Positions 158 through 52,626 of a stretch of DNA of 59,750 nt are shown in pieces (within the stretch, counting starts at the first letter, position 1; the number at the start of each line of letters is the position of its first letter). The DNA lies in the NCBI GenBank assembly GCA_964396535.1, contig CAYNFT010000001.1, forward strand, positions 1 to 59,750. Reading direction: 5' to 3'. The stretch comes from an uncultured Dehalococcoidales bacterium. Its GTDB lineage: Bacteria; Chloroflexota; Dehalococcoidia; Dehalococcoidales; UBA2162. The notes below the pieces were generated by a model that saw only the letters and a list, made by a program, of their open reading frames with translations, was not told the origin of the DNA and did no database searches. The translations under genes and the position numbers were made by a program.

Positions 158-238
158 ACCCATCCCCCTGACCCCCTTCCCTTATAAAGGGAAGGGGGAA
201 ATATTTTAAGAGAGGCTTCGCCTCTCTTTGACTTTCCT
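158..238. repeat. two-hairpin intergenic repeat, copy 1 (orientation F: hairpin A then hairpin B)
   Basis: aacccatcccc, then cccccttccctt/ataa/agggaaggggg, then agagaggc/ttc/gcctctct, then ttgac. Confidence 0.8.
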
Positions 239-280
239 AGCTTTTGGGGCGTTTTGGGCTTTCCTTATTTTCTGGAGTGT

Positions 281-395
281 TTAAGAGGGGCGAAAGCCCC
301 TCTCATAAAGTACTTCCCCTTCCCCTTGATAAGGGGAAGGGGATAAAGGGGATAGGGTTATAAAAATTAAGGGGGTGAGGTTGATAAACAATCTT
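281..395. repeat. two-hairpin intergenic repeat, copy 2 (orientation R, with long tail)
   Basis: agaggggc/gaaa/gcccctct, then ccccttcccctt/gat/aaggggaagggg, then ataaaggggatagggttataaaaattaagggggtgaggttgataaaca. Forms a convergent pair with copy 1. Confidence 0.85.
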
Positions 396-578
396 GGATA
401 AGTTCTTGAAAAAAGCTTACCCCCTACTTGACAAGGGAGGGGTAACAATATAGGATTTTTTTCAGCCAACCTGAAAAAACCCGGCTATTTAATGCAGCCA
501 AAACAGAGTAATCTTGTTTAGCTGAGTTTATTAGAAATATGTTACCTGGAGCGCCAATAGAAGCTAAGGAGGCTAATT

Positions 579-1118
579 ATGGCTGAGCTCAAGAGGACGA
601 AAGAGGAAATCATTAACAAAGCGGAGCAGCTTGGGGTAGAATATGAGGCGAAATACAAGGGCTGCTGCGAGTCAACGTTTCTGGCAATAGTTGATGCTTT
701 AAGATGGGGAGGCCTGGAAATTATCCCGAAGGATATAGAGGAAAAACTTTATCCCGGGATATGCCTCCTAACGGCTGGTGTTTGCATGACCGGAGAGGGT
801 ACCTGTGGTGCTGTATCAGGCAGCGTTATGGCGATTGGCTTTGCCCTGGGAATTCCCAAGGAGACTGATGATGTCGCTGTTGCGAACAGGGCTGGTGTTA
901 AAATTCAGGATACACTTCTGGCCAGGTATTACCAGGAATATGGTTCTATACTCTGCAAGGATGTAATGAGGAAATATTTCGGGAAAGCCTGGGACCTGAC
1001 CAGTGATGAGATGACCCGGGAGTTTCTGAGCATAACGGACGGGTGCACTATCAGGCAGACGGCCAGATGGGCTAGTGAGATTATCCTGGATGAATTCGAA
1101 AAAGGCAATGTAAAGTAG
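579..1118 (+). CDS. C_GCAxxG_C_C family redox-active protein
   Basis: 179 aa. CC pair (YKGCCESTF) and TCGAVSG match the C-GCAxxG-C-C signature. AGGAGG-type SD (aaggagg) 7 nt upstream. Confidence 0.8.
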   Translation: MAELKRTKEEIINKAEQLGVEYEAKYKGCCESTFLAIVDALRWGGLEIIPKDIEEKLYPGICLLTAGVCMTGEGTCGAVSGSVMAIGFALGIPKETDDVAVANRAGVKIQDTLLARYYQEYGSILCKDVMRKYFGKAWDLTSDEMTREFLSITDGCTIRQTARWASEIILDEFEKGNVK

Positions 1119-1297
1119 AAACTGCATGAAATGGAATGGGTTCTTCCGCCATACATATATGGTAGGGAACGGTTTCTGAAACGAGAGCAAAGAGTATTTG
1201 ATAAAGCAGCTAAAGAGGCTCGGAATCCCTGAACAGGTCGGTTTCTTTCAGCTAGATAGTGTATACTATATGAAGACTATAAAGCCTTACAGGAGGT

Positions 1298-3142
1298 ATG
1301 AGCATGGGAGGTTATAAAAACCGCATTCTGCGAGTGGACTTGACAAATCGTACCTTTTCAGAGGAATCACTGAGTGAGGAGCTTATCCATGACTATATTG
1401 GTGGACGCGGCTTCGGAGTCAAGCTCCTGTATGATGAGTTGAAACCGGGGATTGACCCTCTGGGTGAAGAGAATGAGATTATATTCATCGCCGGGCCGTT
1501 AGCGGGAACAAATGCCCAGTCCTTCGGCCGTTATAAGGTTTTCTTCAAGTCACCTCTAACCGGTGGTTACTTTAAGTCCAGCAGCGGGGGACAACTGGGA
1601 GCGGAGCTGAAGTTCTCTGGCTTCGATGCCATTATAGTCAAGGGAATCGCTGATAAGCCAGCCTTCCTCTGGGTTCATGATGGCAAATATGAGTTGAGGG
1701 ATGCCGCTTACCTGTGGGGGCTCGATTGCGATGACACTCATACCCTGATTCGCGAAGAACTGGGAGATTCCAATACCCGGCTCGCCTGCATTGGTCCGGC
1801 TGGTGAGCATGGGGTGAAATATGCCGGCATATTCAGCGACCGTCGCGCCTGCGGCCGGGGTGGTGGTGGCACGGTTATGGGTGCCAAAAATCTCAAAGCT
1901 ATCGCTGTCCGGGGACATCAACGGGTTGATTTATCCGACAAGCAGGCTTTTGCCGCCGCCGTAAGAGAGCAAATAAAAGAGTACAAGGCTAATCCTCAGT
2001 TCGCATCCTTTTCCGAATCAGGAACACAGATTGCTGAGTTTACTAATGTCCTGGGCATGTTCCCTACCAGAAATTTCCAGGAGGGAGTCTTACCGAACTG
2101 GGAGCGGATAGAGGGTGATGAATACACCAAGTTGCGGGTGCGGAAGACAAGGTGCTACAGTTGCATGGTTCATTGTGGTAGCATCACTAAAGTAGGGACA
2201 GGCAAGTATGCTGGAGCGTGGTCTGAAGGACCGGAGTACGAGACTATCTGGGCCTTTAACGGGACGGTGAAATATGCCGATATTGGCCTGACCATTGCCG
2301 CCGATAAGCTGTGCGATGACCTGGGAATAGATACGATTTCCACAGGTAGCTCCATTGGCTTTGCCTATGAGCTCTATGAACGAGGCATCATTACCAAGAA
2401 GGACACCGGTGGCCTTGAGCTTACATTCGGTAATAACAAGCCCGTTATGCAGCTAATCAGACAGATTGCCTACCGGGAAGGCTTGGGTGATTTACTGGCT
2501 GAGGGCACACGTGAGGCAGCCCGCCGTATTGGCAAGGGTGCTGAGCAATATGCAATACAGGTAAAAGGGCTGGAACTGCCTGCCTACGACCCCCGTGGAG
2601 CCAAGGCCCACGGCCTCAACCTGATGACGGCAAATATCGGGGCAGACCACAATACCGGTTATGCCCCTCAAGAGATATTCGGTGCCCCGGTTCCGAGAAA
2701 GGTCGACCGCTTTGCCATCGAAAGTAAAGGCGAGTTAACCAAGTGGAATCAGGACCTAACTGCATTCCTGGAGACAGGTATTTTATGCAGTTTCATGCCA
2801 TCAATGGGCATGCTCAGTGATGAGGTCTACGGCAGGCTTCTCACGGCAGCAACAGGAGTTAAAGACTTCTCAGACACGGCCTTCCTGTGGAAAGTGGGAG
2901 AGAAGATATTCAACCTGGAACGGATGTTTAATGTGAGAGAAGGGTTCAGCAGCAAAGACGATGTTATGCCAAAGCGTCTTACTGAGGAGCCTATGCCTGC
3001 CGGACCATCAGCTGGCCAGGTCTTTGAAGCGGAGCCTCTGCTGGCAGACTACTACCGGGTACGGGGGTGGGATGCCAAGACCGGTATCCCCACCAAAGAG
3101 AAGCTAGAGGAGCTGGGACTGGGCTTCACTACAAATAAATAG
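1298..3142 (+). CDS. aor: aldehyde:ferredoxin oxidoreductase (tungsto/molybdopterin AOR family)
   Basis: 614 aa, full-length AOR-like: N-terminal RILRVDLT, GGRG, the C-x2-C-x3-C-like CYSCMVHCG cluster region, DxxGxD pterin motifs. The SD aggagg favours the second ATG at 1304. Confidence 0.9.
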   Translation: MSMGGYKNRILRVDLTNRTFSEESLSEELIHDYIGGRGFGVKLLYDELKPGIDPLGEENEIIFIAGPLAGTNAQSFGRYKVFFKSPLTGGYFKSSSGGQLGAELKFSGFDAIIVKGIADKPAFLWVHDGKYELRDAAYLWGLDCDDTHTLIREELGDSNTRLACIGPAGEHGVKYAGIFSDRRACGRGGGGTVMGAKNLKAIAVRGHQRVDLSDKQAFAAAVREQIKEYKANPQFASFSESGTQIAEFTNVLGMFPTRNFQEGVLPNWERIEGDEYTKLRVRKTRCYSCMVHCGSITKVGTGKYAGAWSEGPEYETIWAFNGTVKYADIGLTIAADKLCDDLGIDTISTGSSIGFAYELYERGIITKKDTGGLELTFGNNKPVMQLIRQIAYREGLGDLLAEGTREAARRIGKGAEQYAIQVKGLELPAYDPRGAKAHGLNLMTANIGADHNTGYAPQEIFGAPVPRKVDRFAIESKGELTKWNQDLTAFLETGILCSFMPSMGMLSDEVYGRLLTAATGVKDFSDTAFLWKVGEKIFNLERMFNVREGFSSKDDVMPKRLTEEPMPAGPSAGQVFEAEPLLADYYRVRGWDAKTGIPTKEKLEELGLGFTTNK

Positions 3143-3147
3143 TAACA

Positions 3148-3454: not shown

Positions 3455-6655
<3,201 letters not shown>

Positions 6656-9397: not shown

Positions 9398-9458
9398 GCT
9401 CGGGATATTCGGTGTAAATGATGAGGTTATTAATATTTAGGAGCCACCATCATCGAGC
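9398..9458. repeat. copy R1 of a 60 bp direct duplication (source: inside the LarA-like gene)
   Basis: gctcgggatattcggtgtaaatgatgaggttattaatat(t)taggagc(c)accatcatcgagc. One indel and one substitution relative to 11073-11132. Confidence 0.9.
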
Positions 9459-9889
9459 GTCCTGAACTTCGCCAGCTTGGGGTCGTGGTTTCTGAAATGG
9501 GCAATCCGAATGCGCTTCATTTTGCCGCCCTCCAGGTCGTAGAGCACCCAATTTGTCATAATGCTCACATCGCCCTTCTTCCTCTGCACCCCGCCGGAAG
9601 AAGCCGGAGCATCTTTGAAGGTGTGGAATTCGGTGTAGAGTTCGGCAAATAGCAGATTCCCGCTCTCCATGAAGTCCCTGAGCTCCAGAACCTCTCTTGT
9701 GTGCTTGTGCAGGCTCTTATAAGAAGCGGCGAACTCCTGGGGACCGTGCAGCGTACGGGCTGGCGTTTGCGGGCCGTAGGCATTGTCAAAATACTCCACC
9801 GTAATATCTGGCGTGAAATAGCTCGTGACAGCATCGTACCTCTTGTTGTTGAAGTGCTCAATATATTCCAAATATTGCTCTCTATTCAT
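9437..9889 (-). CDS. SnoaL/NTF2-like fold protein
   Basis: 150 aa. MNREQYLEYIEHFNNKRYDAVTSYF is typical of SnoaL-like proteins. The last 6 codons and the stop lie inside repeat R1. Confidence 0.6.
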   Translation of the reverse strand: MNREQYLEYIEHFNNKRYDAVTSYFTPDITVEYFDNAYGPQTPARTLHGPQEFAASYKSLHKHTREVLELRDFMESGNLLFAELYTEFHTFKDAPASSGGVQRKKGDVSIMTNWVLYDLEGGKMKRIRIAHFRNHDPKLAKFRTLDDGGS

Positions 9890-10923: not shown

Positions 10924-12174
10924 TCAATCAGCGAAATACTGTATATCTGCACTTGGGTATACGGCTACTTTGGTGCCGGCTCCATGCGATTTTTCCAGCG
11001 TCTGTATTACCTGTGTCCAGTCACTCATCAGCAAAACCTTATCCCGGTTAGCAAAACGGTTTAAAATTCTGAGCTCGGGATATTCGGTGTAAATGATGAG
11101 GTTATTAATATTAGGAGCAACCATCATCGAGCCGCCTAAGCTACCACTAATCGTTTTACCGAAACTATCAAAAAGGTAATGCACATCCTGTCCGGAAGGC
11201 GAATTGGCTATGATGACAATGTCCCCACCCTAGCGGTTTACCGCCGGAAGAGCATTAGCCATGGCCATGTTATACTCAGCAGCTTTGTCATAGGCATTGG
11301 CAATAACAATATCGTTATCTCTGGTGCTGGTAGCAACGTAGTGGGATTGAGCTTCCTTTGTCGCCGCTTTGTAGGTCGGTTCCAAAGCACCGGCAAAAAT
11401 GGCTGCCGTCTCTCCCCACAGGTTAACAATGCAGTTTACTACCATATCAAGCCCAGCCATTCTGGCTATTTCCTGAGCATCAGCATTTACCGGGCTGTCA
11501 TCAACAACTCCCGTGAGTGGTAAACCAAGCTTTCTTCGTTCGGCTGTCCAGGTTCTATGAGTTTCGCCGTGATGACCTACCACTGTCTCATAAGAGGCTA
11601 CTCCGGGTATTATTATTTTGCCACCACCGCTCAAGCCGTACAGGGGATGAGGTACGACCTGACCAATGCCAATTTTCAGGTCACAATGCATGACCTCACT
11701 ATTTATGTACGCTTTAGTTCCATAACTGGAGGTTCCAATATATGTGCAATTTAAGAAAGGGCAGTGGTTATAGACAGGAAACCTGGCTATAACATCCTCG
11801 CCCAGCTTTTTCACCATGCTAATCCGGTCCATGGCTTGATGGTTAGCAACCGCCGCAATGAAGCGTATTCTATCGTCGGTGACGCCAGCCTCCGCCAGTT
11901 CTTCCAGAATAAAGGGGACAATTTCATATACCCGCGTACTGCGGGTCAGGTCATCAAATATTATAACTACCTCGTTTTTATCTTTCGCCATCTCTCTCAA
12001 GGGTGGCATACCAGTAGGAGAAGAGATGGCTGCCCTGATTTCACTTGCTTTTATGGCTGGCCTGTTATAGCCAGCTATATTATGCACCGTTACCTGCCAG
12101 CTATCGGGCAGTGGAAATTCGACTTCCTTAGACTCATACCATAAGTATTGCGGTAGTTTAACAATATTCGCCAA
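10924..12174 (-). pseudogene. LarA-like (DUF2088, lactate-racemase family) gene with a single in-frame TAG
   Basis: ORFs 11230-12174 and 10924-11184 are in the same frame: ...ALPAVNR*GGDIVIIANSPSGQDVHYLFD. TAG = 11230-11232. The combined length is ~416 aa, the usual family length. Confidence 0.7.
11073..11132. repeat. copy R2 of the 60 bp direct duplication
   Basis: Lies inside the LarA-like C-terminal part, where it encodes SMMVAPNINNLIIYTEYPEL on the minus strand. Confidence 0.9.
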
Positions 12175-20380: not shown

Positions 20381-20416
20381 AAGGTTGGATATACGTATGT
20401 ACGTATATCCAACCTT
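20381..20416. terminator. perfect 16-bp inverted repeat between convergent trpA and a small Zn-ribbon gene
   Basis: aaggttggatatacgt/atgt/acgtatatccaacctt. There is no clear U tract, so terminator function is inferred from position only. Confidence 0.4.
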
Positions 20417-24041: not shown

Positions 24042-24158
24042 GTACCGGGGGGAGCCAGATAGAGGTTTCGCCTTTTCGACAGCCATGTTCCTCTCTCCAT
24101 CGAAGAATAGGCAGTTCAATCGGGAACCTCTGAAAAAGAAAGTTCCTCTAAAGAAAAC

Positions 24159-31938: not shown

Positions 31939-31994
31939 AAATCCGTATACATCGCTACATACTTTATACCTAAAATAAACGTTAAAGGGAGCTG

Positions 31995-32224: not shown

Positions 32225-32266
32225 ATTATATAATTTAATATATTAATCCTAAACAGGAGAGAATCT

Positions 32267-35562: not shown

Positions 35563-38244
35563 TCACAAGCGACGACGAACCAGTTTGTCAAGCTCCACTA
35601 CCATCACCACAGAAAGGGCTATCATGGTCAGCCTGCTCCATGTCTGCAAAGTCAGAGGTTCGACTCCGAGCAAGAACTGCGTCGGTGCGAAATACATTGC
35701 CCCAAGATGGATGAGGAAAGAGAGTACTGTACCGATGAGAAGAAACCGGTTGGAAAGCGGGCTTCTGCTAAACAGTGACTGCTCTTCGGAGCGGCAGTTA
35801 AACACATGAAATAGCTGGAACATTACCAGAGTAGTGAGAGCAGCTACTCGAGCGTATTCCAGGGTAGCACCACCATTTCGCTCCCAGATGAACATTCCCA
35901 GCGTTCCGGCAGCCATGACCAACCCTACTGCCAGCCCACGCTGTATGAGAGCACGAGACAGAATTCCCTCCGCCGGGTCGCGGGGCGGTTTTTGGAATTG
36001 TGCCACTTCTCCCGGTTCAAAAGCCAGAGCCACATCTTCGACTCCGTTTGTGACCAGATTGAGCCATAAAATCTGGGCGGGCAGAAGTGGTAGCGGGAGC
36101 CGCATAGCCAGACTTACCAGAATGGTAACAATCTCACCGATACCTGATGAAATCAGGAAAAACGTAGCCTTGCGAATGTTTGAGAAGGATGTTCGTCCCT
36201 CTTCCACCGCAGCATATATAGTGGCGAAGTTGTCATCCGTCAGCACCATCTCGCTGGCTTCCTTGGCAACGTCAGTGCCTGCCTGACCCATTGCCGCCCC
36301 AATGTGGGCGGCTTTCAAGGCTGGAGCATCATTTACTCCATCCCCGGTGACGGCAACAATGTGTCCCAGCCGGCGTAGAGTATTCACCAGTCTCAGCTTC
36401 TGGGACGGACTTACCCTGGCGTAAACGGAGACACTCTGGACAATCTTATCCAGTTCTTCGTCGGATAACGCTTCCAGTTCAACACCAGTGCAAACCTCAG
36501 GGACTCCCTTGCTTATACCAACCTTCTGGGCGATGGCTGCTGCTGTGGTGGGATTGTCCCCGGTAACCATCATTACTCTAATACCTGCCCGGTGGCAGGC
36601 GGCCACGGCCTCCATAGCCTCTTCACGCGGCGGATCTATCATACCCTGGAGACCAAGGAAAGTAAGCCCTTTTGGTTCTCCTTTAAGCACAGCCTCAGCC
36701 ACTTCTTCGCCTTTGCCCATCGCCATGGCCAGCACTCGAAGACCCTCGCGTGCCAGATTATCAGCCTCCTGCAGTACCTCATCACCATTCAATTCCTGTA
36801 GTCCCTTTGAATCAATTACCTTATCACTCATCGTTACCAGTCTTTCTGCCGCCCCTTTGAGAAATACCAGCTTCTCTCCATCATGTCTGTGCACAGTTGC
36901 CGAGAATCGCTCCTTGGGGTCAAAAGGCACCTCATCTACTACGGGGTAGTCCTTGAGGAGTTCCTCCCTCCAGAGTCCTGCCATGGCACCGCTTACCAGC
37001 AGGGCTGCTTCCGTTGGGTCGCCTTCTGAGATAAGGTTATCACCCTCACGGTGCAAAGATGCCTGGTTTGCCAGAACTCCCGCCAGCAGAGTGAGATACA
37101 GAGGTGTACCTTCCATCGGCTGCACATCCTGGCTATTCTGCCCGTTTTCTTGATTACGAGACAGACCTTCCTTGCTGATAGAAAAACCTGTATCTGCCGT
37201 CCATACGGACTGCACCGTCATCCGATTTTGGGTCAGGGTGCCCGTCTTGTCCGACAGGATGACGGTACAGCTACCCAGCGTCTCCACAGCGGGCAAGCGA
37301 CGCAGAATAGCCTTGCGTTTGGCCATACGCCTTACACCCACTGCCAGCGCAACGCTCATCACTACAGGCAGCCCTTCGGGAATGGCAGATACAGCAAGGC
37401 TCACGGTGGTAAGGAACATCTCTTTCAGGGGCTCACCAATGCCAATTCCTATGCCAAAGACAATGGCGGCGGCTCCAACAACGGCCAGGCTAATCCAGCG
37501 GCCAAACCTCTTCATGCGTGTCTGAAGAGGGGTTTCTGCTCTTCTCGTACCAATTATACCCTCAGCAATCGCTCCCATTTCGGTTCGGTGACCGGTCGCC
37601 ACGACAACCCCCGCACCTCTACCTGAAGTGACAGCGGTGCCCATAAAGGCAAGGTTTTCCTGGTCGGCAAGCGCGATAACACTGCCTTCGGGGTATGGTT
37701 CGAAGATTTTCATTGAGGGAATAGACTCGCCCGTAAGCATAGATTCGTCTATCTGGAGACGGGTGGACTCAATGAGTCTTATGTCTGCGGGTACGACGTC
37801 TCCTTCGTCCAGCAATACAATGTCTCCGGGAACGAGATTAATGCTATCTATCTCTGTTTCCTGCCCGTTACGTCGGACATTTGCTCTTGGTTCGCCCAGG
37901 CGTATAAGGGCATTAATAGCATTCTCAGCTCTATTCTCCTGAGTGAAGCCAATTACAGTGTTAAAGACAATAATAGCCCCTATTACGATAGCATCAGTCC
38001 AGTGCTGGATAGCCAGTGTAATCGCCATAGCTGCCAGTAGAATGTATATCAGGGGGCTGGTAATCTGATTCAGGAGAATCTTCCAGGTGCTGACCTCTCC
38101 ACCACTCTCTATCCGGTTAGGTCCGTATTGCTTGAGACGGTCCTCTACCTGCTTGTCGGAGAGACCATCCTGGCTTGTTTCCAGTTCTGATAGAGCACTC
38201 TCGGGCGAAACAACGTACCAGAGTTTGCGATTTTCTTTGCCCAT
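35563..38244 (-). CDS. cation-transporting P-type ATPase (P2/Ca2+-Mg2+-like)
   Basis: 893 aa with TGES, DKTGTLT, TGDN, GDGVNDAPAL and 10 TM segments. Confidence 0.93.
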   Translation of the reverse strand: MGKENRKLWYVVSPESALSELETSQDGLSDKQVEDRLKQYGPNRIESGGEVSTWKILLNQITSPLIYILLAAMAITLAIQHWTDAIVIGAIIVFNTVIGFTQENRAENAINALIRLGEPRANVRRNGQETEIDSINLVPGDIVLLDEGDVVPADIRLIESTRLQIDESMLTGESIPSMKIFEPYPEGSVIALADQENLAFMGTAVTSGRGAGVVVATGHRTEMGAIAEGIIGTRRAETPLQTRMKRFGRWISLAVVGAAAIVFGIGIGIGEPLKEMFLTTVSLAVSAIPEGLPVVMSVALAVGVRRMAKRKAILRRLPAVETLGSCTVILSDKTGTLTQNRMTVQSVWTADTGFSISKEGLSRNQENGQNSQDVQPMEGTPLYLTLLAGVLANQASLHREGDNLISEGDPTEAALLVSGAMAGLWREELLKDYPVVDEVPFDPKERFSATVHRHDGEKLVFLKGAAERLVTMSDKVIDSKGLQELNGDEVLQEADNLAREGLRVLAMAMGKGEEVAEAVLKGEPKGLTFLGLQGMIDPPREEAMEAVAACHRAGIRVMMVTGDNPTTAAAIAQKVGISKGVPEVCTGVELEALSDEELDKIVQSVSVYARVSPSQKLRLVNTLRRLGHIVAVTGDGVNDAPALKAAHIGAAMGQAGTDVAKEASEMVLTDDNFATIYAAVEEGRTSFSNIRKATFFLISSGIGEIVTILVSLAMRLPLPLLPAQILWLNLVTNGVEDVALAFEPGEVAQFQKPPRDPAEGILSRALIQRGLAVGLVMAAGTLGMFIWERNGGATLEYARVAALTTLVMFQLFHVFNCRSEEQSLFSRSPLSNRFLLIGTVLSFLIHLGAMYFAPTQFLLGVEPLTLQTWSRLTMIALSVVMVVELDKLVRRRL

Positions 38245-38306: not shown

Positions 38307-38370
38307 CAACCCCACACCGCTAATTTTTATAACCCTATCCCCCTAACCCTCTTCCCTTAATGGCGTATTA
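38307..38370. repeat. half copy of the repeat family (tail plus 5' arm of hairpin A)
   Basis: caaccccacaccgctaatttttataaccctatcccc matches the reverse complement of the copy-2 tail. Confidence 0.6.
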
Positions 38371-40954: not shown

Positions 40955-41746
40955 CCGAATGATAGGGTTGACTCGAGAAATTTGAAGCTGCCGGAGGTGA
41001 TTCCGTATACTGAGATGCCCAGGTCTTTCAAGGCACCGGCCCCTGGGACTACAAGCCCAGAACAAATGGCTCTGGTAGCTGCATTAAAGGAAAAGGGTTG
41101 CGATGCAGTAATAAGCGGGAATGGTGACTGAGGAGAGTGCACCCCGCAGGCGACGGGGACGGTTATAATAGCTGAGCAGCTCGGGATTCCCGGTGTAGTA
41201 GTTACTGCGCCGGGTTTTGCGGAACAGGCCCGGCTTACAGGTTACAATAATGCAGTGCCATCCTTGCAAGTTGCCGTGTATCCCGGTGCATTTGATACCC
41301 ATGCGGACGCTGAATTAGCCGAGAATACCACAACAGCCGTTTTTTCTCAGATTGTTGAGTCACTGACTAAACCAATAGAGGTTGCGGAAAAACGTGCTAA
41401 GGTCACGGGGGCTAGAGCTATTGTATTCACAGGTACTTTCGATGAAGTGAACAGGTACTTCTCGGACATGAAGTGGAGTGACGGGCTGCCTATCATTCCG
41501 CCTACTGTAGAAAGGGTTGTGGAATTTCTGAAATATACAGAATACTCCCCCGGTGAGGAAATAGCCGTACTCCCAGTAGCAAATCTGAGAGCAACCCCCT
41601 GGAATATTGCTGTCAATGGGGTGATGGCCGGGTGCCGCCCAGAGTTCATGCCACTACTGATCGCATACGTAAAAGCTATAGGTGATACAGTGAAGGGTCC
41701 AGGGATGTTTTTTGGCAGCACCCCCTTTAAGTTTTTGATTTATTAA
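40955..41746 (+). pseudogene. C-terminal part of the UGSC-family (seleno)protein (in-frame TGA) continuing into a DGLPIIPPT-motif domain, 3'-truncated by a repeat copy
   Basis: Single frame: ...ALVAALKEKGCDAVISGNGD-TGA-GECTPQATGTVIIAEQLGIPGVVVTAPGF...VYPGAFDTH... TGA = 41129-41131. The last residues (STPFKFLIY*) are encoded by the repeat tail. Confidence 0.55.
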
Positions 41747-41824
41747 CCCTATCCCCTTTATCCCCTTATTAAGGGGAAGGGGAAGTATTGAATAAGAGGG
41801 ACGAAGTCCCTCTTCAACTCCCCT
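41720..41824. repeat. two-hairpin repeat copy (F, with tail)
   Basis: ccccctttaagtttttgatttattaaccctatcccc, then tccccttattaaggggaagggg, then agagggac/gaa/gtccctct. Confidence 0.8.
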
Positions 41825-41826
41825 CT

Positions 41827-42299: not shown

Positions 42300-42374
42300 T
42301 GGAGGCGACGACCGGATTCGAACCGGTGATAGAGGTTTTGCAGACCCCCGCCTTAACCACTTGGCTACGTCGCC
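42300..42374 (-). tRNA. tRNA-Cys (GCA)
   Basis: GGCGACG-TA-GCCAAGTGGTTAAGGC-G-GGGGT-CTGCAAA-ACCTC-TATC-ACCGG-TTCGAAT-CCGGT-CGTCGCC-T-CCA. All stems pair. U73 discriminator, encoded CCA. Confidence 0.93.
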
Positions 42375-42448: not shown

Positions 42449-42520
42449 GGGGGAGGGGGGTGTAAATCCCTCTTACAAGAATCTTTTCTCTTTCCCCCTG
42501 TTAAAAGGGGTTAATTGTTC
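42449..42520. repeat. degenerate repeat copy (R)
   Basis: agggggaggggggtgtaaatccctct ... ctctttccccctgttaaaagggg. Confidence 0.4.
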
Positions 42521-45828: not shown

Positions 45829-45885
45829 TAAATTGACTTTGTTATAAGGCATCTTCGTTACCAAGCATTAAAGTAGGGGGAGTTC

Positions 45886-45972
45886 AAGAGGGGGCAAAGC
45901 CCCCTCTTGCAAAAACCTTCCCCCTCTCCTTTGAAGGAGAGGGGGAAACAGGGGGTGAGGTAGATAAGGGAC
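45886..45972. repeat. two-hairpin repeat copy (R, tail gives SD for next gene)
   Basis: agagggggc/aaa/gccccctct, then ccccctctcctt/tg/aaggagaggggg, then aaacagggggtgaggtagataaggga. Confidence 0.85.
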
Positions 45973-47320: not shown

Positions 47321-47857
47321 TTAGTCAGCTAGGACGACAAAATCTTCTAATTTTTGATACGCCAAACTGAATTCTTTATCCCAATGCTCCATAGTTAGTT
47401 TTTCCTTCTCCTCCTGTGACATTATACAAAATTTAAAAATCAGAAATTCTAAAAATTCCCTTGTTTCCTTATTGCTAATCTGAGAAACTAAAGGCAATCG
47501 TTTCGTCACCGTTTCAATCATATCTGCTTCTTCAGATTGAAATATAACTTCTTTTAACTTTTCCATTGATGCTTGGTCGGGTAACAACCGGTCTAGAGAA
47601 TTAGGCCCCTGTTTACTTGCAAATTCCCACATTGAGCGCATTACCAGCTTGGTTTGAATTTCTGTCAAGGCTTCTCTTATAGGTGAAACTATTTTCTCCC
47701 TATTTTCCCTTCTAGCATCTCTAATTTCACGTTCCCTTTCTAGCTTTTGTCTTTCGGTCTCTCTTTTGCCTTGTAAAAAATCTCTAAGGAAATAGCCTCC
47801 ATAAATTACTATCCCAGTAGCTAGTATGGTAGCAACTGTGTTCCATATACCTTCCAT
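47321..47857 (-). CDS. hypothetical N-terminally anchored coiled-coil protein
   Basis: 178 aa. One TM (VATILATGIVIYGGYF) then a charged helix (ERQKLEREREIRDARRENREK). AT-rich. 11 nt upstream of the eIF-2B-like gene. Confidence 0.5.
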   Translation of the reverse strand: MEGIWNTVATILATGIVIYGGYFLRDFLQGKRETERQKLEREREIRDARRENREKIVSPIREALTEIQTKLVMRSMWEFASKQGPNSLDRLLPDQASMEKLKEVIFQSEEADMIETVTKRLPLVSQISNKETREFLEFLIFKFCIMSQEEKEKLTMEHWDKEFSLAYQKLEDFVVLAD

Positions 47858-47925
47858 TTTCGACCTCCCCTTTAGCGGCTTAATAAGAGTATACTACTAA
47901 TTCATTTACATAATAAAGAGTGTCT

Positions 47926-47996
47926 AAAAGGGGCGAAACCCCTCTCTTACAATTCACTTCCCTCTCTCCTTTGAAGGAGAGAGGGACAAAGGTGAG
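47926..47996. repeat. two-hairpin repeat copy (R), first of a tandem pair
   Basis: aaggggc/gaaa/cccctct, then ccctctctcctt/tg/aaggagagaggg. Confidence 0.8.
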
Positions 47997-47998
47997 TT

Positions 47999-48105
47999 AA
48001 AGAGAGGCGAAGCCTCTCTTATATAAACTATTTCCCCCTCCCTTTTTAAGGGAGGGGGATACAGGGGGAGGGTTACTATAAAGGTTTAAAGAGTGTAAGG
48101 TAGAT
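47999..48105. repeat. two-hairpin repeat copy (R, with tail), second of the tandem pair
   Basis: agagaggc/gaa/gcctctct, then ccccctccctt/ttt/aagggaggggg, then atacagggggagggttactataaaggtttaaagagtgtaaggtagattg. Confidence 0.8.
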
Positions 48106-48193
48106 TGAATTTAATAAGTCTATCTGGTAATTTTATAGTCACACCCACCCTCGGAAATACTTCTCCTTATAGATAGCGACAGATTTAGCTTTA

Positions 48194-48222
48194 TTGCCAC
48201 TATTGACTATCAGTGGTATACT
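48194..48222 (+). promoter_or_regulatory. sigma70-like promoter TTGCCA-N17-TATACT upstream of rph
   Basis: TTGCCA 48194-48199, TATACT 48217-48222. Confidence 0.4.
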
Positions 48223-48259
48223 CTGGCATATATCTTAAAAGCTGGAGGGGGGAATTTTG

Positions 48260-48991
48260 ATGAAGAGAGCTGATGGTCGTGCCTGGGACGAACTGAGGCC
48301 GGTGCGAATAATACCCGGATACCAGAGCTTTGCCGAAGGCTCGGCACTAATTGAGATGGGAAAGACTCATGTCTTGTGCTCAGTTAGTGTGGAGGAACGA
48401 GTGCCGAACTTCCTTAGAGAGGCAGGCGGCGGCTGGATTACGGCTGAATACTCTATGCTGCCCCGTGCTACTGTCACTCGTACTACCCGCGATTCATCAC
48501 TGGGCAGGGTTACTGGCAGGAATCAGGAAATACAGCGCCTCATCGGGCGCTCGCTGAGGGGGGCAGCCGAACTCAATGCTTTGGGGGGGAGAACCTTCAT
48601 TGTAGATTGTGATGTGCTTCAGGCGGATGGTGGCACCAGAACCGCGGCCATTACCGGTAGCTATGTAGCCCTGTATCTGGCAATGCAGACCCTGGCAAAT
48701 ATGGGAATATTATCGTCCATACCTCTAAAGAGTGCTGTAGCTGCTACCAGTGTCGGCATTGTACACAACAACAGGCTTTTAGACCTGTGCTATGACGAAG
48801 ACTCCAGCGCCGGGGTTGATTTCAATGTCGTGATGACCAGCCAGGGTGAGTTTGTGGAGGTTCAGGGTACGGCTGAAGGGAAGCCCTACAGCAAGGAGAC
48901 TATCGATTTCCTTCTTGCCCTGGCGGAAAAGGGTATCAGGGAACTGTTTCAAGCCCAGCAGGCAGCCCTGGAAGATGTAGGGGTAAGATAG
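48260..48991 (+). CDS. rph: ribonuclease PH
   Basis: [15 protein letters not shown]..., [50 protein letters not shown]. Confidence 0.95.
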
Positions 48992-49030
48992 AGATTTATT
49001 ATCTACCTCACTCCATTAGGTTCTTATTTG

Positions 49031-49128
49031 GTAACCCCATCCCCTGTATCCCCTTCCCCTTGATAAGGAGAAGGGGATAGGGTTTCATAAATCTTAAGTG
49101 GGTGAGGCTTCGCCCCCTCAAACTTCCC
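49031..49128. repeat. two-hairpin repeat copy (F, rearranged)
   Basis: gtaaccccatcccctgtatccccttcccctt/gat/aaggagaaggggatagggtt ... gtgggtgaggcttcgccccctc. Confidence 0.75.
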
Positions 49129-49150
49129 TTGATAAACCAGAAACGAATCT

Positions 49151-50431
49151 TTAAGGTCTTACCTGCCCGCTGCCAAAGATAATCCATTTATAGGTGGTCA
49201 GTTCCTTTAATCCTATTGGACCGCGGGCATGCATCTTCTGGGTGCTGATAGCTACCTCTGCTCCCAGGCCGAATTGACCTCCATCGGTGAAGCGGGTGCT
49301 GGCATTAACATAGACACAGGCAGCATCCACTTCATTGAGGAAGCGCATAGCGGCACCATAATCCTCAGTAACAATGGCTTCGTCTGCCCCCGAACCATAG
49401 CGCTCAATGTGCTCCAGAGCCTCGTCCAGAGAATCCACCACCCTGACCGCCGCCACCAGTGCCAGAAACTCCTTGCCCCAATCCTCCTCTGTAGACGCTA
49501 CTAGCCTTAAAGAAGAGTCTGCTTTAAGAATGGACAGGGCTCGTTCATCGCAGCGCATCTCTACTCCAGCCTTTGCCCACTCAGTCGCTACCAGCGGCAG
49601 GTAGCTCTGGGCGATATCGGCGTGAACCAGCAGGGTATCCAGGGCGTTGCACACTGAAGGTCGCTGCACCTTGGCATTGAAGGCTATAGCCACTGCCTTG
49701 GCCAAATCGGCGCTCTTGTCAACATAGGTATGGCAAACGCCAATGCCACCGCTGATGACCGCCATAGCAGCATTCTCGTTAACAAAATTTATTAGCTCGG
49801 CCCCGCCCCGGGGGACAATCAGGTCGATATTGTCGTTCATCTTGAGCAGGTGATTGATGAGTGCTCGGTCGGTATTCTCAACAAACTGCACCACCCCCTC
49901 GGGCATCCCGGCTCTGGTAGCCGCTTCCTGGACTACACCGGCTAAAGCGCCGTTGGAGTGAACCGCCTCCTTACCACCCCTGAGGATAATGGCATTGCCT
50001 GATTTCAGGCAGAGCACCGAGATGTCTATAGTAACGTTGGGTCGGCTCTCATAGATAGTAGCGATTACCCCGAAAGGAACCCGCTTTCTACCTATCAGCA
50101 AGCCATTGGGCAGGGTGCGCATATCAAACACCTCGCCCACAGGGTCAGGGAGTGCTGCCACTGCCAGCACATCATGGGCTATACCCTCAAGGCGGCTGGG
50201 AGAGAGTGTCAATCGTTCAAGCATAGCCTCGTTCATCCCTGATGCCTTAGCTTCGCTGCAATCAATTTCATTGGTAGCCAGTATTTTATCCTTCCTGGCT
50301 AACAGGTCATCAGAGATATTAGCTAAAGCCTTGTTCTTTATCTCGGTAGAGAGATAGGCCAGCCGACGAGAAGCCGCCTTGGCTGCCTTTCCCTTTGCCT
50401 GTAGTTCTTCAATTGCTGATGTCATATTCAT
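49151..50431 (-). CDS. proA: glutamate-5-semialdehyde dehydrogenase (gamma-glutamyl phosphate reductase)
   Basis: 426 aa. ESRPNVT, VCNALDTLLVH catalytic Cys, ASTRFTDG. Confidence 0.95.
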   Translation of the reverse strand: MNMTSAIEELQAKGKAAKAASRRLAYLSTEIKNKALANISDDLLARKDKILATNEIDCSEAKASGMNEAMLERLTLSPSRLEGIAHDVLAVAALPDPVGEVFDMRTLPNGLLIGRKRVPFGVIATIYESRPNVTIDISVLCLKSGNAIILRGGKEAVHSNGALAGVVQEAATRAGMPEGVVQFVENTDRALINHLLKMNDNIDLIVPRGGAELINFVNENAAMAVISGGIGVCHTYVDKSADLAKAVAIAFNAKVQRPSVCNALDTLLVHADIAQSYLPLVATEWAKAGVEMRCDERALSILKADSSLRLVASTEEDWGKEFLALVAAVRVVDSLDEALEHIERYGSGADEAIVTEDYGAAMRFLNEVDAACVYVNASTRFTDGGQFGLGAEVAISTQKMHARGPIGLKELTTYKWIIFGSGQVRP

Positions 50432-50457
50432 ACTCCTGATTATGCATTATATACTGT

Positions 50458-50554
50458 AACCCCACCCCCTGTATCCCCTTCCCTTTGATAAGGGGAAGGG
50501 GAAGAATTTTTCTTAAGAGGGGCGAAGCCCCTCTTTGACTCTCCTATTTTATAT
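50458..50554. repeat. two-hairpin repeat copy (F)
   Basis: aaccccaccccctgtatccccttcccttt/gat/aaggggaagggg, then agaggggc/gaa/gcccctct, then ttgactctcc. Confidence 0.9.
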
Positions 50555-50566
50555 ATCTCTTCTTCT

Positions 50567-51565
50567 TTATCTATTCAAGCATCCTTTCGTATCTCTGGGC
50601 AAGCCCTCTGTTTCAAACTGGATACCGGGGAAGGAGTCCCTGAGCCTTTTTGAAGTAACCTCTATAGCATCATAGTTAATATCTATCCCTATCCAGCGTC
50701 GATTCAGCTTATGGGCGGCAACAAGGGCGGTGCCGCAGCCACAGAAGGGGTCAAGCACAATATCCCCTTCGTTGGAACTGGCTTTAACAATGCGCTCAAG
50801 CAAAGTGAGAGGCTTCTGGGTGGGATAGCCAAGGCGCTCCTTGTAGGGACCGTGAAGCGGGTCAATATCAGCCCACCAATCTTCTGGAACCTTGCCTTCA
50901 TATTTGAGGTAGTATTTCTTACCATATTTCAGCCAGTACCTGTTACCCTTATCGTCGGTGAAATATGTCCTGTTTGTTCTATCTACCAGAATATCCTCAT
51001 AGTTAAAAATCCACCTGTTACTTTTCGTATAGAAAAAGATGGTGTCGTGCTTCCGGGCAAAGTATTTTTTTGACCTCCCACCACCCTTATAGGACCAGGC
51101 AATCTCGTTGCGGAAGTTCTTGGCTCCGAATATGCGGTCAAGAACAAGTTTTAAATAATGGCTGGTAGAGGGGTCACAATGAAGATACAGAGAGCCGGTA
51201 TCCTTGAGCGTACGGTGCATCTCAAGCAACCTTGGGGTCATCATGACTAAATACGCTGCTACAGGGGTAGTGCCAATGCCTTCTACCATTCCGCCAATAA
51301 GTTTCCCAACTTCCAACGGTGCCTTTAGCAGGATTTCCTGGAGAGTGTCCTCTGCCGTCCTGTCCCAGGTCCAGGTATCAGAGAAAGCTTTTACTCTTGC
51401 CCCGGGCCGCTTACCATTATTTTCTTTATAGAGAAGGTTATAATCCCGGTTACTGCCGAAAGGCGGGTCAAGGTATATCAGGCCAATGGAGCTATCAGGG
51501 ATATATTTACGCAAGATTTCCAGATTGTCGCCGAAATAGAGGACGTTAGTTTTTAGTTCTGCCAT
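50567..51565 (-). CDS. DNA (N6-adenine or N4-cytosine) methyltransferase, beta-class motif order
   Basis: LIYLDPPFGS (motif IV) precedes DPFCGCGTALVAA (motif I). ATG 51565 (MAELKTNVLYF) is preferred, with SD ggtgaggt supplied by the adjacent repeat tail. Confidence 0.85.
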   Translation of the reverse strand: MAELKTNVLYFGDNLEILRKYIPDSSIGLIYLDPPFGSNRDYNLLYKENNGKRPGARVKAFSDTWTWDRTAEDTLQEILLKAPLEVGKLIGGMVEGIGTTPVAAYLVMMTPRLLEMHRTLKDTGSLYLHCDPSTSHYLKLVLDRIFGAKNFRNEIAWSYKGGGRSKKYFARKHDTIFFYTKSNRWIFNYEDILVDRTNRTYFTDDKGNRYWLKYGKKYYLKYEGKVPEDWWADIDPLHGPYKERLGYPTQKPLTLLERIVKASSNEGDIVLDPFCGCGTALVAAHKLNRRWIGIDINYDAIEVTSKRLRDSFPGIQFETEGLPRDTKGCLNR

Positions 51566-51569
51566 CTCT

Positions 51570-51676
51570 ACCTCACCCACTTTATTTTATACAACCCCAT
51601 CCCCTATATCCCATTCCCCTTAGCAAGGGGAAGGGGAATTTCATGTGAGAGGGGCTTCGCCCCTCTCTGACTCCCT
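51570..51676. repeat. two-hairpin repeat copy (F, with tail)
   Basis: cctcacccactttattttatacaaccccatcccc, then ttcccctt/agc/aaggggaa, then agaggggc/ttc/gcccctct, then ctgactccc. Confidence 0.9.
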
Positions 51677-51733
51677 TTAACTTATATAGAATCTTTGGGA
51701 ACAGGAGTACGTTACCTTAATGTAACGCAAAAG

Positions 51734-52399
51734 TCACTCCTTGGGTATTTCTTTAAAAATGGCTAGGCCACTTTCTCTAAGCTTACTTAGACGGTCTTCA
51801 AGTGAATCGGATAAAAGGGCACAGTAATCCAAGCAATTAGCTGACTCAAATAGCAGACTGACTAGAACGGCAAATAAGATAGATATATTCCTTCGAAGTG
51901 CCTTTTCATTGAAAGGCTGAAAAACTCTCCAATCTCCTGACTCGAAATCAATCATATGAGACATAGATTCAGGTGCAAAAGAGATATGGGAAGCATGTTT
52001 GTTTAAATAATTGCGCAATTTCTTAGATTCCCCGTGAATAAGCTTGGCTATCTCTCCTGCTGATGGCAATCTCTCTTCCAGTGCTTCATCTACTCTTTGG
52101 GGATTATCATAAAAGTACCTCAGAAGCTCAATACATTCAATTAAAGGGCGTAAGAGAGCCCCGGCTTCTTGTGCAAGGCCATCCAATGTCAGGCTAAATA
52201 TACCTTGAGCAAGGCACCTACCTTTAAGCAAAGTAAGTCCGACCACTCTGGAGAAAGTCGAAGCCTTTCCAGGGGAATTGAACATACCAAGCATTTCATC
52301 TAGTAGTGAAAAAGTTTGATAAATAGTATTGGCTTCTATCTGTAATTCAGATTCAATAGCACTCATAGCGTTCGTTCTGGTGTTCCAAATTTCATGCAT
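51734..52399 (-). CDS. hypothetical all-alpha protein, paralogue of 31177-31938 (HEPN/Abi-like, tentative)
   Basis: 221 aa. SD gtgaggaa. Contains RNYLNKH (R-x5-H). AT-rich. Confidence 0.6.
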   Translation of the reverse strand: MHEIWNTRTNAMSAIESELQIEANTIYQTFSLLDEMLGMFNSPGKASTFSRVVGLTLLKGRCLAQGIFSLTLDGLAQEAGALLRPLIECIELLRYFYDNPQRVDEALEERLPSAGEIAKLIHGESKKLRNYLNKHASHISFAPESMSHMIDFESGDWRVFQPFNEKALRRNISILFAVLVSLLFESANCLDYCALLSDSLEDRLSKLRESGLAIFKEIPKE

Positions 52400-52545
52400 C
52401 GCAATTCCTCACTCTACCACACTCCTCTGAACCAGTTCATCTATTTCAGTCGTTATCATAACGGTCTCCTGAAAGACTATGAATATCTTCTTGTATTGCT
52501 GGATTTCATCGCTCTCTTACTTTTCCTCCTCACCACTAACAGGTG

Positions 52546-52626
52546 TTTAAGAGGAGCGAAACTCCTCTTTTATTTATACTTCCCCCTTCCCTTATCAAGG
52601 GAAGGGGGTCAGGGGGATAGGTTGCC
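52546..52626. repeat. two-hairpin repeat copy (R)
   Basis: agaggag/cgaaa/ctcctct, then cccccttccctt/atc/aagggaaggggg, then tcagggggataggttgcc. Abuts the proB stop codon. Confidence 0.9.

Follow-up and report, generated by a model that had tools for sequence, protein, structure and literature searches.

The stretch of DNA analyzed here (the window) is 59,750 nucleotides long, spans positions 1 to 59,750 of contig CAYNFT010000001.1 (assembly GCA_964396535.1), and comes from an uncultured anaerobic member of the Dehalococcoidales. Its intergenic gaps carry a single family of short repeats, and our main finding is that the conserved unit of this family is three-stranded rather than a plain hairpin. 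Each unit contains two hairpins, and each hairpin adjoins a segment that mirrors one of its own arms. With moderate confidence, we take these repeats to be non-coding elements of the Dehalococcoidales lineage that each hold two potential intrastrand triplex modules and whose folded single-stranded DNA form is under selection. The window contains 13 clear and 4 fragmentary copies, located in 14 of its ~52 intergenic gaps, for a density of ~1 per 3.6 kb; the units are about 85–130 bp long.

Read on its G-rich strand, a full element begins with third strand B (AGGGGAG), followed by a 3- to 5-nt linker and hairpin B (AGAGGGGC, loop, GCCCCTCT). An A-rich spacer leads to hairpin A (TCCCCTTCCCCTT, loop, AAGGGGAAGGGGA) and a 3-nt linker, and the element closes with third strand A (AGGGGATGGGGTT) and the terminus GATAAACAATCT. 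An extra orphan third strand (GGGGGTGAGGTT), called the tail in an earlier sequence-only reading of the window, is present in 50 of 165 copies (~30%). The two hairpins are unlike, with 8 bp in B and 13 bp in A, and they account for the short inverted repeats of the window copies. Our comparisons draw on 264 non-overlapping matches to a profile hidden Markov model (HMM) in 773 kb of sequence, comprising the window and related loci of 8 kb each (cited below by L numbers) from 56 assemblies, counting the window.

The sequence-only reading had treated the two flanks, AACCCYATCCCC at the 5′ end and ACTCCCC after "TTGAC" at the other, as an invariant frame around variable stems. Instead, both co-vary with the stems as mirror repeats. 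On the C-rich strand, the 5′ motif consists of the 12–13 nt before hairpin A and is separated from the hairpin's pyrimidine arm by a 3-nt linker. It is a mirror copy of that arm, reversed and not complemented, and it varies along with the arm in at least five subfamilies. Viewed from the G-rich strand, each third strand mirrors the purine arm of its own hairpin, with G facing G-C and A or T facing A-T. Written outwards from the linker, the hairpin A arms and their third strands pair as TCCCCTTCCCCT with TCCCCTACCCCA, TCCCCCTCTCCT with TCCCCCACTCCA, TCCCTCTCCCCT with TCCCACTCCCCA, CCCCCTTCCCTT with CCCCCTACCCAA, and TCCCCCTCCCTT with TCCCCCTCCCAA; each agrees at 12/12 positions when haplotypes with a 3-nt linker are scored by the rule that C faces C and T or A faces T. 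The triplets of third strand, pyrimidine arm, and purine arm change as sets: HMM columns 9/23/41 read TTA in 106 cases and CCG in 37, columns 6/26/38 read CCG in 114 and TTA in 30, and columns 10/22/42 read CCG in 144 and ATA in 5.

Because subfamily descent inflates the raw association, the test was run on haplotype classes. When six arm classes and their third strands are combined in all 720 ways, no other assignment does as well as the observed one, and the mirror register scores 53/60 versus 35/60 for the direct-repeat register. Across 137 copies, the commonest haplotypes agree at 9–10 of 10 positions, or at 11–12 of 12 in a longer scoring. In the window alone, a search for class II motifs (stems of 6–15 nt, loops of 1–6 nt, at most one mismatch) returned five sites of 12–13 triplets with 3-nt loops and 0–1 mismatch. 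These represent four haplotypes, and none was found in 20 shuffles. The window copies thereby show the pyrimidine arm, purine arm, and antiparallel purine block that define a class II purine motif. All subfamilies but the main one entered the collection as neighbors within the loci and not via the search pattern; thus, the pattern did not create the mirror result. The 3′ motif, third strand B, mirrors hairpin B in turn, less strictly than third strand A mirrors its own hairpin. At columns 85/73/63 the triplets are CCG in 88 cases, TTA in 35, and TCG in 12, while C faces T only once, and stems GCCCCTTC precede CTTCCCC rather than CTCCCC.

The stems themselves are maintained by compensatory change. 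In 162 full-length, profile-aligned copies, the twelve pairs of hairpin A and the eight of hairpin B are Watson-Crick in 91–99% of copies, and the variable pairs change on both sides (26-38: CG 116, TA 31, CA 3; 23-41: TA 109, CG 37; 63-73: GC 119, AT 36). Covariation was tested on a MAFFT alignment of 126 distinct copies that was fitted to no structure, with shuffle and slide controls. In this alignment 93.1% of cells are paired, and double-sided changes occupy 136 cells, compared with 34.2 ± 4.6 when partners are shuffled; 0 of 500 shuffles reach 136, and sliding the partner column by 1–3 yields at most 55. The sequence-only reading had argued from concerted changes in the arms that structure is what selection sees, and on this point it was right for both stems. 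The perfect-stem variants of hairpin B are AGAGGGGC (63 copies), AGAGAGGC (26), GAAGGGGC (16), and GAGGGGGC (11), with AGGGAGGC (8), AAAGGGGC (5), and AGAGGGAC (3) less frequent. Since hairpin-A and hairpin-B variants occur in several combinations, the two modules are at least partly independent. Nearest-neighbor folding, which covers Watson-Crick pairs only, predicts the two hairpins on either DNA strand (z = −4.3 to −6.3) and leaves the third-strand segments unpaired. Their conservation therefore calls for another explanation.

We know of no replication error from which mirror repeats arise, and a dimeric protein would favor inverted repeats. To our knowledge, no structure except a triple helix depends on a purine/pyrimidine tract being repeated in mirror image, and we therefore read the mirror pattern as a triplex. 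On the G-rich strand, the blocks stand in the order pyrimidine arm, loop, purine arm, 3-nt linker, and purine third strand antiparallel to the purine arm. The observed pattern of G.G-C and A/T.A-T matches the rules of the purine (reverse-Hoogsteen) motif, and in the terms of the study that sets them out, hairpin A with its third strand would be a class II module and hairpin B with its third strand a class I module (Holder et al. 2015, Nucleic Acids Res 43:10126, PMC4666352). In the mechanism we propose, each hairpin of a single-stranded G-rich strand would accept the adjoining purine segment in its major groove, antiparallel to the purine arm, and the strand would end up as one class I and one class II purine-motif triplex. 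This folded form would be the one that is recognized, copied or recombined, and kept by selection. Only copies with all three strands matched would persist, copying would be rare yet continuing, and old copies would be replaced or lost. We infer the triplex, the single-stranded DNA stage, and any effects on expression from the pattern of variation. The arrangement resembles the mirror repeats of H-DNA in its purine/pyrimidine mirror tract and identical base-triplet rules. It differs in that the mirror repeat is coupled to an inverted repeat, so that all three strands lie on one DNA strand, and in that the fold would need single-stranded DNA rather than extrusion from a supercoiled duplex.

Motifs of the BoxC/PIT/TM kind have been known since the 1990s. 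The BoxC repeats of Escherichia coli were renamed PIT (potential intrastrand triplex) and then TM_ECO (PMC4666352), the PIT elements going back to earlier work by Hoyne, Maher et al. (2000, as cited in PMC4666352). TM_ECO has the form CCCTCNCCC-N3-6-GGGNGAGGG-N3-GGGNGAGGG, a class II purine motif that folds as an intrastrand triplex in vitro by circular dichroism and nuclear magnetic resonance (NMR) (PMC4666352). It is intergenic, with 23 copies in K-12 (4.6 Mb) and up to 143 in Enterobacter, the richest genome reported; it has no associated transposase and is enriched at loci rearranged between strains, and triplex motifs rich in G/C also abound in Microcystis, Anabaena, Nostoc, and Thermus (PMC4666352). 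The sequence-only reading could place the Dehalococcoidales repeat in no named family. We find that its hairpin-A module belongs to this described class, and that the element as a whole is a two-module, very dense, and diversified relative rather than something wholly new.

The likeness extends to several features. The order of blocks on the G-rich strand is the same, as are the letters, with G.G-C and with A or T facing A-T. Both repeats are intergenic and multi-copy, often form inverted pairs, lack a nearby transposase, and sit in variable gene neighborhoods. One Dehalococcoidales subfamily (CCCTCTCCCCTT..AAGGGGAGAGGG..AGGGTGAGGGGTT) is almost identical to the E. coli stems GGGGAGAGGG / GGGTGAGGGG. 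The published TM_ECO pattern matches exactly in L065, and in L034, L077, L090, and L113 once A-T stem extensions count as loop; in the window it has zero matches, as the main subfamilies have other stems. There are also clear differences. The Dehalococcoidales stems span 12–13 triplets versus 9 in E. coli, and in every case their class II module comes together with a second, different hairpin that brings a third strand of its own (class I). The unit adds a T/A-rich spacer, a conserved terminus, and an optional tail resembling a Shine-Dalgarno sequence. The density in the window is about tenfold or more above that of the richest reported genomes, the copies are orientation-biased relative to genes whereas no such bias is reported for E. 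coli, at least five co-varying subfamilies stand against nearly identical E. coli copies, and the host is a chloroflexotan. Judged by their sequences, the Dehalococcoidales repeats and TM_ECO would appear to be the same kind of motif, and likeness in kind does not establish common descent. The triplex-motif paper and its supplements mention neither Dehalococcoides, Chloroflexi, nor covariation (PMC4666352). Literature searches with the motif strings, or with Dehalococcoidia combined with REP/MITE/REPIN, triplex, G-quadruplex, or H-DNA, returned no description, and the family is apparently undescribed in the searched literature.

The G-rich strand could also be selected for a different structure. 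In the main subfamily, the purine arm and third strand A together read G4-N2-G4-N5-G4-N2-G4, and every subfamily keeps at least four G-tracts, as would be expected if a G-quadruplex on this strand, or an i-motif on the C-rich strand, competed with hairpin A. We regard this as very unlikely to be the selected structure. A quadruplex needs G-tracts and not mirror-placed interruptions, yet mirror placement is seen in all five classes. The subfamily GGAGAGGGGG...GGGGGTGAGG has outer tracts of just 2 and 1 G, and the third strand of hairpin B would be left unexplained. NMR imino spectra of the E. coli relative likewise spoke against a quadruplex (PMC4666352).

Whereas the sequence-only reading had allowed either DNA or RNA, the evidence now leans towards DNA as the acting form. 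First, G:T and A:C mispairs are equally common in the 162 profile-aligned copies (44 versus 51). Wobble is thus not strand-specific, while RNA made from one strand would tolerate only one kind. Second, the letters of the third strands are those expected of the purine motif. This motif is stated to be unable to form in RNA (PMC4666352), and DNA is thereby favored. Third, loops occur in both orientations (hairpin A: GAT 29, ATC 20; hairpin B: TTC 64, GAA 19). Loop orientation, including GAA versus TTC in hairpin B, shows no relation to the direction of transcription, in numbers that are small; the flips suggest loop inversion or indifference at the DNA level. Finally, a search of the whole window against Rfam found that tRNA alone reaches the gathering threshold, and a permissive search of 47800–52700 returned chance hairpin matches far below threshold.

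The position of copies relative to genes bears on the same question. Only 13 of 190 copies overlap a long open reading frame (ORF) by more than 40 nt. Among the 143 copies with neighbors on both sides, 87 lie in co-directional gaps, 36 in divergent gaps, and 20 in convergent gaps. In co-directional gaps, sense-strand counts are 63 for the G-rich and 24 for the C-rich strand (p = 3.5e-5), and by the majority in each locus they are 38 versus 9. When the C-rich strand is sense, hairpin A with the T-rich spacer would resemble an intrinsic terminator; this would do harm inside operons and may account for the bias. With the G-rich strand as sense, third strand A lies no more than 12 nt from the start in 16 of 95 downstream ORFs, where it is the sole purine run, and other ORFs start directly after the tail GGGGGTGAGG. 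The latter include the three window cases that the sequence-only reading had pointed out, in which GGTGAGG lies 8, 12, and 5 nt upstream of the starts at 25090, 45973, and 51565 (minus), and tails at Shine-Dalgarno distance are found in other genomes too. The element in L056 is immediately adjacent to AA-ATG, in a place where the relative L109 carries a AAGAGGAA of its own. The placement at Shine-Dalgarno distance is real as a position, and ribosomes may use it. Ribosome-binding sites that a repeat appears to supply in this way are worth accounting for in gene callers.

These features invite the view that the element acts as RNA, as a cis-acting transcribed module whose hairpins terminate or stabilize transcripts and whose G-rich end is a ribosome-binding site. 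The 63 versus 24 bias relative to transcription fits such a module. Hairpin A with the T-rich spacer is flagged as terminator-like in three window copies, and at least four consecutive T follow hairpin A in 62 of 162 copies. Copies with the C-rich strand as sense trail the upstream stop by a median of 20 nt, with the next start 152 nt off; those with the G-rich strand as sense end a median of 30 nt ahead of the next start, and in roughly a quarter of usable cases the spacing of the G-rich motif is that of a Shine-Dalgarno sequence. Moreover, pyrimidine-motif intrastrand triplexes are possible in RNA (PMC4666352). We nonetheless consider an RNA element improbable. Neither strand shows an excess of G:U-compatible mispairs, loop flips are independent of gene direction, Rfam offers no match, a quarter of copies occupy divergent gaps, and a plain RNA hairpin has no use for mirror covariation. 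Of 13 third-strand letters on the C-rich strand, 3 are A, which is unfit for the pyrimidine motif, and eight to ten adjacent C+.G-C triplets would require acid pH. The PIT elements of E. coli, moreover, have neither terminator nor promoter activity (PMC4666352).

Several points weigh against the reading of the repeats as selected triplex modules that are still being copied. The covariation counts were made without correction for descent, and the third-strand evidence comes from some five haplotype classes for hairpin A and three or four for hairpin B. In its most frequent form (CCCTATCCCC, 59 copies), third strand A carries one mismatch or a bulge. A hairpin B triplex would span just 6–7 triplets, and third strand B is unadjusted to its stem in the AGGGAGGC subfamily, save for one copy (L034) as aligned. 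Four G-tracts on one strand also permit the quadruplex discussed above. In the E. coli relatives, in vivo dimethyl sulfate footprinting gave no support for a stable triplex, and the lack of promoter or terminator activity noted above counts here as well (PMC4666352). As to copying, no transposase or mobilizing gene was found among 30 window ORFs and 6 ORFs of related loci, and in three comparisons of filled and empty sites, with flanks 70–88% identical, neither a target-site duplication nor a sharp insertion boundary came to light. Loops and spacer have a mean similarity of 0.415 within genomes versus 0.424 between them.

The significance of the family lies in what it adds to the E. coli case. 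The E. coli triplex folds in vitro without sign of a cellular role, in vivo footprinting being negative and no function having been found (PMC4666352). Because the E. coli copies are nearly identical, comparative evidence is impossible there. In the Dehalococcoidales, all three strands have changed together across subfamilies, which is the kind of evidence that established RNA secondary structures. The main value of the family is its natural compensatory variants; should the pattern stand up to a test that allows for descent and to biophysical assays, these would be ready-made controls and make the question of intrastrand DNA triplexes in bacteria directly testable. A bolder version holds that the mirror covariation records real selection for a three-stranded single-stranded DNA fold in vivo, and that the element spreads via a single-stranded DNA stage with a protein that recognizes the triplex. 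We put this forward tentatively, as a possibility that may well prove wrong. If true, it would constitute the first comparative (evolutionary) evidence of a purine-motif intrastrand triplex as a functional unit. It would also establish a new class of DNA, mobile or recombinogenic and defined by its structure, with E. coli BoxC as a decayed one-module relative.

The repeat family is old and mostly static, and is still copied now and then. Orthologous gaps, which the sequence-only reading had proposed to compare for presence or absence and for target-site duplications, yield the former and not the latter. It had also noted copies inside normally compact gene pairs, and this holds: the ybaB-recR gap is ~40 nt and empty in L053 (TGA-CTTT-AGGAGAG...TTG), ~240 nt with one copy in L078, and ~310 nt with two copies in the window. 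Similarly, the gap after the RNase PH gene measures 160 nt in the window, where it holds a composite copy, compared with 45–50 nt and no copy in L033 and L104; further pairs of filled and empty orthologous gaps exist. The "empty" site in L035 resembles a deletion remnant. A copy upstream of serS is common to the window, L024, and L034. Among ten positions occupied in two species, five hold different subfamilies. Since a subfamily change in place would need at least six coordinated substitutions, the more likely course is replacement or independent arrival. Loops and spacer are no more alike in copies at orthologous positions than in random pairs (0.36 versus 0.40), in a test that has low power at ~79% flank identity. 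Copies that are near-identical, spacer included, are fourfold more frequent within an assembly than between assemblies (1.6% versus 0.38%), and such copies occur at different loci of one genome in DAOUFA, CAZCLE, and JAUVZA. That mean similarity is no higher within genomes implies that most copies are old. In L056, at ~3490–3575, a 20-nt direct repeat (TGAAGTAGTAAGAAGGGGAG) brackets a degenerate hairpin-B-like piece beside a full copy, and may be the footprint of a local duplication or insertion event.

Such a history could also be that of a REP/REPIN-type repeat, in which the hairpins would be recognized by a single-copy Y1 (RAYT/IS200-like) transposase encoded elsewhere, with the mirror motifs as guide or cleavage-site sequences. 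The Dehalococcoidales repeat, like the REP, BIME, and REPIN sequences of Enterobacteria and Pseudomonas, consists of short G+C-rich extragenic palindromes in hundreds of copies, found as singles, inverted pairs, tandems, and clusters; it persists long within its lineage, being inherited as a high-copy intergenic repeat across a whole order, and serves as a target for other insertion elements. Most copies are old and a few recent, a pattern also described for REPINs. Terminal inverted repeats are absent, the ends AGATTGTTTATC... and ...ACTCCCCTT not being inverted copies, and their absence together with that of a target duplication suits this type. A conserved A/T-rich GATTGTTTAT stands beside the 5′ end of the element and is partly present at some unoccupied sites, so it may be either a target or part of the element. 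IS200/IS605 elements use a fixed target sequence, which GATTGTTTAT resembles.

Against this origin, no RAYT/IS200-like gene was found in the 36 ORFs, although 8 kb per locus could easily miss a single-copy gene. Of the gene families represented by 750 ORFs in the loci, none has copies flanking it repeatedly, and those taken up as candidates were housekeeping genes. No GTAG/CGTC head stands at the stem base in the consensus of 162 copies, whose conserved ends are AACCCYATCCCC and ACTCCCC. The unit is made of two different hairpins, of 8 and 13 bp, with mirror-repeat flanks, rather than one palindrome of 20–40 nt, and unlike REP sequences it is frequent in divergent promoter gaps. The guide sequences of IS608-type elements are 4 nt long, which the mirror match of 12–13 positions far exceeds. 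On balance, we think a REP/REPIN origin improbable and continue to favor triplex modules kept as folded single-stranded DNA. An autonomous parent was sought as element halves 0.5–4 kb apart, and only a nested insertion of 144 bp was found. Classification as a MITE (miniature inverted-repeat transposable element) was rejected, as the ends are not inverted and no target-site duplication was seen. The repeat has further parallels in the pneumococcal BOX, enterobacterial ERIC/IRU, Neisseria Correia, and mycobacterial MIRU elements, which are likewise ~100 bp, modular, and located inside operons, with plausible effects on the expression of neighboring genes. MIRU copies reportedly lie directly against stop and start codons and may bring a ribosome-binding site with them, as the Dehalococcoidales repeat does in position. 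It differs from all of these in having no terminal inverted repeats, target-site duplication, or sequence similarity to them, and in being defined by three-way mirror covariation.

The family extends well beyond the window. Scanning species-representative genomes for the 5′ motif together with the opening bases of hairpin A recovered at least 113 stretches, nearly all labeled as Dehalococcoidales, Dehalococcoidia, or Chloroflexota metagenome-assembled genomes (MAGs). The sequence-only reading had suggested searching the rest of the genome and related metagenomes for further copies, and the genome for a transposase; copies are there, in 55 other assemblies that are almost all Dehalococcoidales MAGs, and no transposase was seen in the 36 ORFs. 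The window shares gene order with six repeat-carrying loci at 70–78% nucleotide identity and encodes an aldehyde:ferredoxin oxidoreductase. Exact look-ups of two window proteins gave no match on record. A cyanobacterial origin, which the G/C-rich palindromes had brought to mind, was set aside, as the window has no HIP1 site and encodes this oxidoreductase. The repeat covers a few per cent of carrier genomes, and several scan matches lie <100 nt from a contig end; it probably fragments Dehalococcoidales MAG assemblies. Four loci labeled Deltaproteobacteria (L003, L004, L008, and L078) carry true copies. Three of them, L004, L008, and L078, are syntenic with Dehalococcoidia loci or the window at 70–79% identity, and their labels are probably wrong; L003 has no such synteny. 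Scan matches in Prevotellaceae and Bdellovibrionales were set aside as chance, the element itself being absent there. Six IMG/VR contigs classed as viral (L114–L119) carry genuine copies, with at least four within 2.2 kb in L118.

Within the window, the 5′ motif AACCCYATCCCC (at most one mismatch) occurs 11 times versus 0.73 expected, and 0 of 100 shuffles reach 11. Direct-repeat detection without prior knowledge grouped the copies into families, and an HMM trained solely on copies from other genomes gave 17 non-overlapping matches. The sequence-only reading had counted 17 copies, and the architecture it described, or a recognizable part of it, is present at every position it listed, as is every hairpin variant that it quoted. 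Thirteen of these copies are clear, while 24159–24232, 25941–25965, and 42449–42520 are weak or degenerate and 38307–38370 is a half visible through the motif only. Both orientations occur, and the convergent pair (158/281) and the tandem (47926/47999) that it had reported are there. The distribution is very uneven. All copies except the first pair, 15 in number, fall within 24–53 kb, and the 22 kb at 1118–23736 have zero copies among ~20 genes, despite several gaps of 300–1300 nt.

The convergent pair lies in the gap preceding the gene at 579. Its first member (156–238, plus strand, HMM score 53.7) is full, belongs to the subfamily with arm CCCCCTTCCCTT, and has a perfect 12-triplet motif at 157–198 when read on the minus strand. 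The second (272–395, minus strand, HMM core 272–360, score 83) is full with a tail and is our reference copy; its C-rich consensus is on the minus strand and its G-rich strand is the plus strand. Along the plus strand it consists of third strand B (GGAGTG, 274–279), hairpin B (purine arm 284–291, loop 292–295, pyrimidine arm 296–303), a spacer (304–314), hairpin A (pyrimidine arm 315–327, loop 328–330, purine arm 331–343), a linker (344–346), third strand A (AGGGGATAGGGTT, 347–359), and a tail (360–394) with GGGGGTGAGGTT at 371–382 and the terminus GATAAACAATCT at 383–394. Its class II motif spans 13 triplets (315–359) with one mismatch, and the z score of its DNA fold is −6.3. The ybaB-recR gap holds a degenerate copy at 24141–24232, recovered as weak HMM matches (E = 4e-4 and 8e-3; HMM 24141–24182), and a full copy at 24241–24325 (minus, score 52.8). 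In the latter, hairpin A arm CCCCCTCTCCTT and the matching third strand AACCTCTCCCCC form a perfect 13-triplet motif at 24280–24324. Between recR and a GNAT gene, the copy at 24982–25082 (minus, HMM 24982–25056, score 54.9) has third strand A partly deleted, and its tail GGGGTGAGG stops 8 nt short of the ATG at 25090. The fragment at 25931–25965 is hairpin A alone (HMM 25931–25964, score 22.5).

The copy upstream of serS (31983–32226, minus) is matched by the HMM in two pieces, 31983–32047 and 32190–32226, which are one split copy. Its hairpin A is interrupted by the 144-bp insertion at 32048–32191, which is bounded by a 9-bp duplication (TAAAAAGGG, 32039–32047 and 32192–32200); in L024 and L034 the copy is uninterrupted. 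The inserted element contains an internal inverted pair (GTCACCCTGAGCG... / ...CCTCAGAATGAC). Another copy, in L103, has a sequence related to this element (90% over 40 nt) at the same spot in its hairpin A, and foreign sequence follows AAGGG in a copy of L072. It would seem that the hairpin-A loop is the target of this second element, a preference comparable to that of some insertion sequences for REP elements.

The 5′ half copy at 38307–38370 (plus) retains the tail, third strand A, and a decayed arm, and adjoins the start of a P-type ATPase gene (35563–38244, minus). It was not recovered by the HMM at E ≤ 0.01 and is matched by the motif search at 38331–38342. The tailed copy at 41720–41825 (plus, HMM 41743–41825, score 66.3) has a shortened hairpin A and a hairpin B of AGAGGGAC/GTCCCTCT, and a degenerate copy (42452–42510, score 17.6) sits beside the tRNA gene at 42303–42374. 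At 45876–45972 (minus, HMM 45876–45961, score 41.8), a full copy combines third strand ACCTCACCCCC with arm CCCCCTCTCCTT, and its G-rich end GGGTGAGG lies 12 nt ahead of the TTG at 45973. In the tandem, the downstream member (47915–47994, minus, score 37.2) is without a third strand A of its own, the place being occupied by the 3′ motif of the upstream member. The latter (47989–48105, minus, HMM 47989–48076, score 55.4) has arm CCCCCTCCCTT, a decayed tail, and a perfect 12-triplet motif at 48033–48074. A composite, two-ended copy (48993–49150, plus, HMM 49031–49130, score 64.1) lies between convergent genes and has a single hairpin A with a third strand on both sides and inverted terminus motifs at both ends.

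Three further copies stand in the proB-proA region. The first (50456–50546, plus, score 82.2) is full and lies between proA and a DNA methylase gene. The second (51570–51679, plus, HMM 51592–51679, score 75.4) is full with a tail, and on the minus strand its GGGTGAGG is 5 nt ahead of the ATG at 51565. The third (52538–52626, minus, HMM 52538–52621, score 49.6) is full and lies immediately past the proB stop codon. It has hairpin B AGAGGAGC/GCTCCTCT followed by third strand CACCT, carries a 12-triplet motif at 52582–52623 with one mismatch, and is the sole window copy between co-directional genes with the C-rich strand as sense. Pfam confirms the flanking genes ybaB (23736–24041), recR (24353–24964), proA (49151–50431, minus), and proB (52627–53778, minus). 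Within the proB-proA interval, at 50567–52399, are the DNA methylase gene and a 221-aa ORF of unknown nature, with copies marking their boundaries, and L104 lacks both the 221-aa ORF and one copy. Such gene differences fit the link, made in E. coli, of the motif with variable gene neighborhoods, and the repeat marks sites of gene-order change. The methylase homolog in L033 also has a restriction-endonuclease-like domain.

The window contains other repeated sequences. The 530-nt gap that precedes the gene at 20828 contains a perfect 17-bp inverted repeat with a 2-nt center (20381–20416; AAGGTTGGATATACGTA / TACGTATATCCAACCTT), which is unrelated to the two-hairpin family. Between the two units of an exact 40-bp direct repeat (9398–9437 and 11073–11112, 1675 bp apart) are a SnoaL-like ORF and 1.3 kb with no long ORF, and the 30 bases following each unit are also similar (9437–9468 and 11111–11142, 84%). 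Four tandem 120-bp units at 34583–35036 fall within the ORF at 34580–35338 (minus) and match collagen-triple-helix and NHL repeat models. Finally, about eight tandem units of 288–297 bp, 71–98% identical, occupy 57527–59653 inside the ORF at 57013–59706 (minus), which reaches the window end; they are probably a repeated protein domain.

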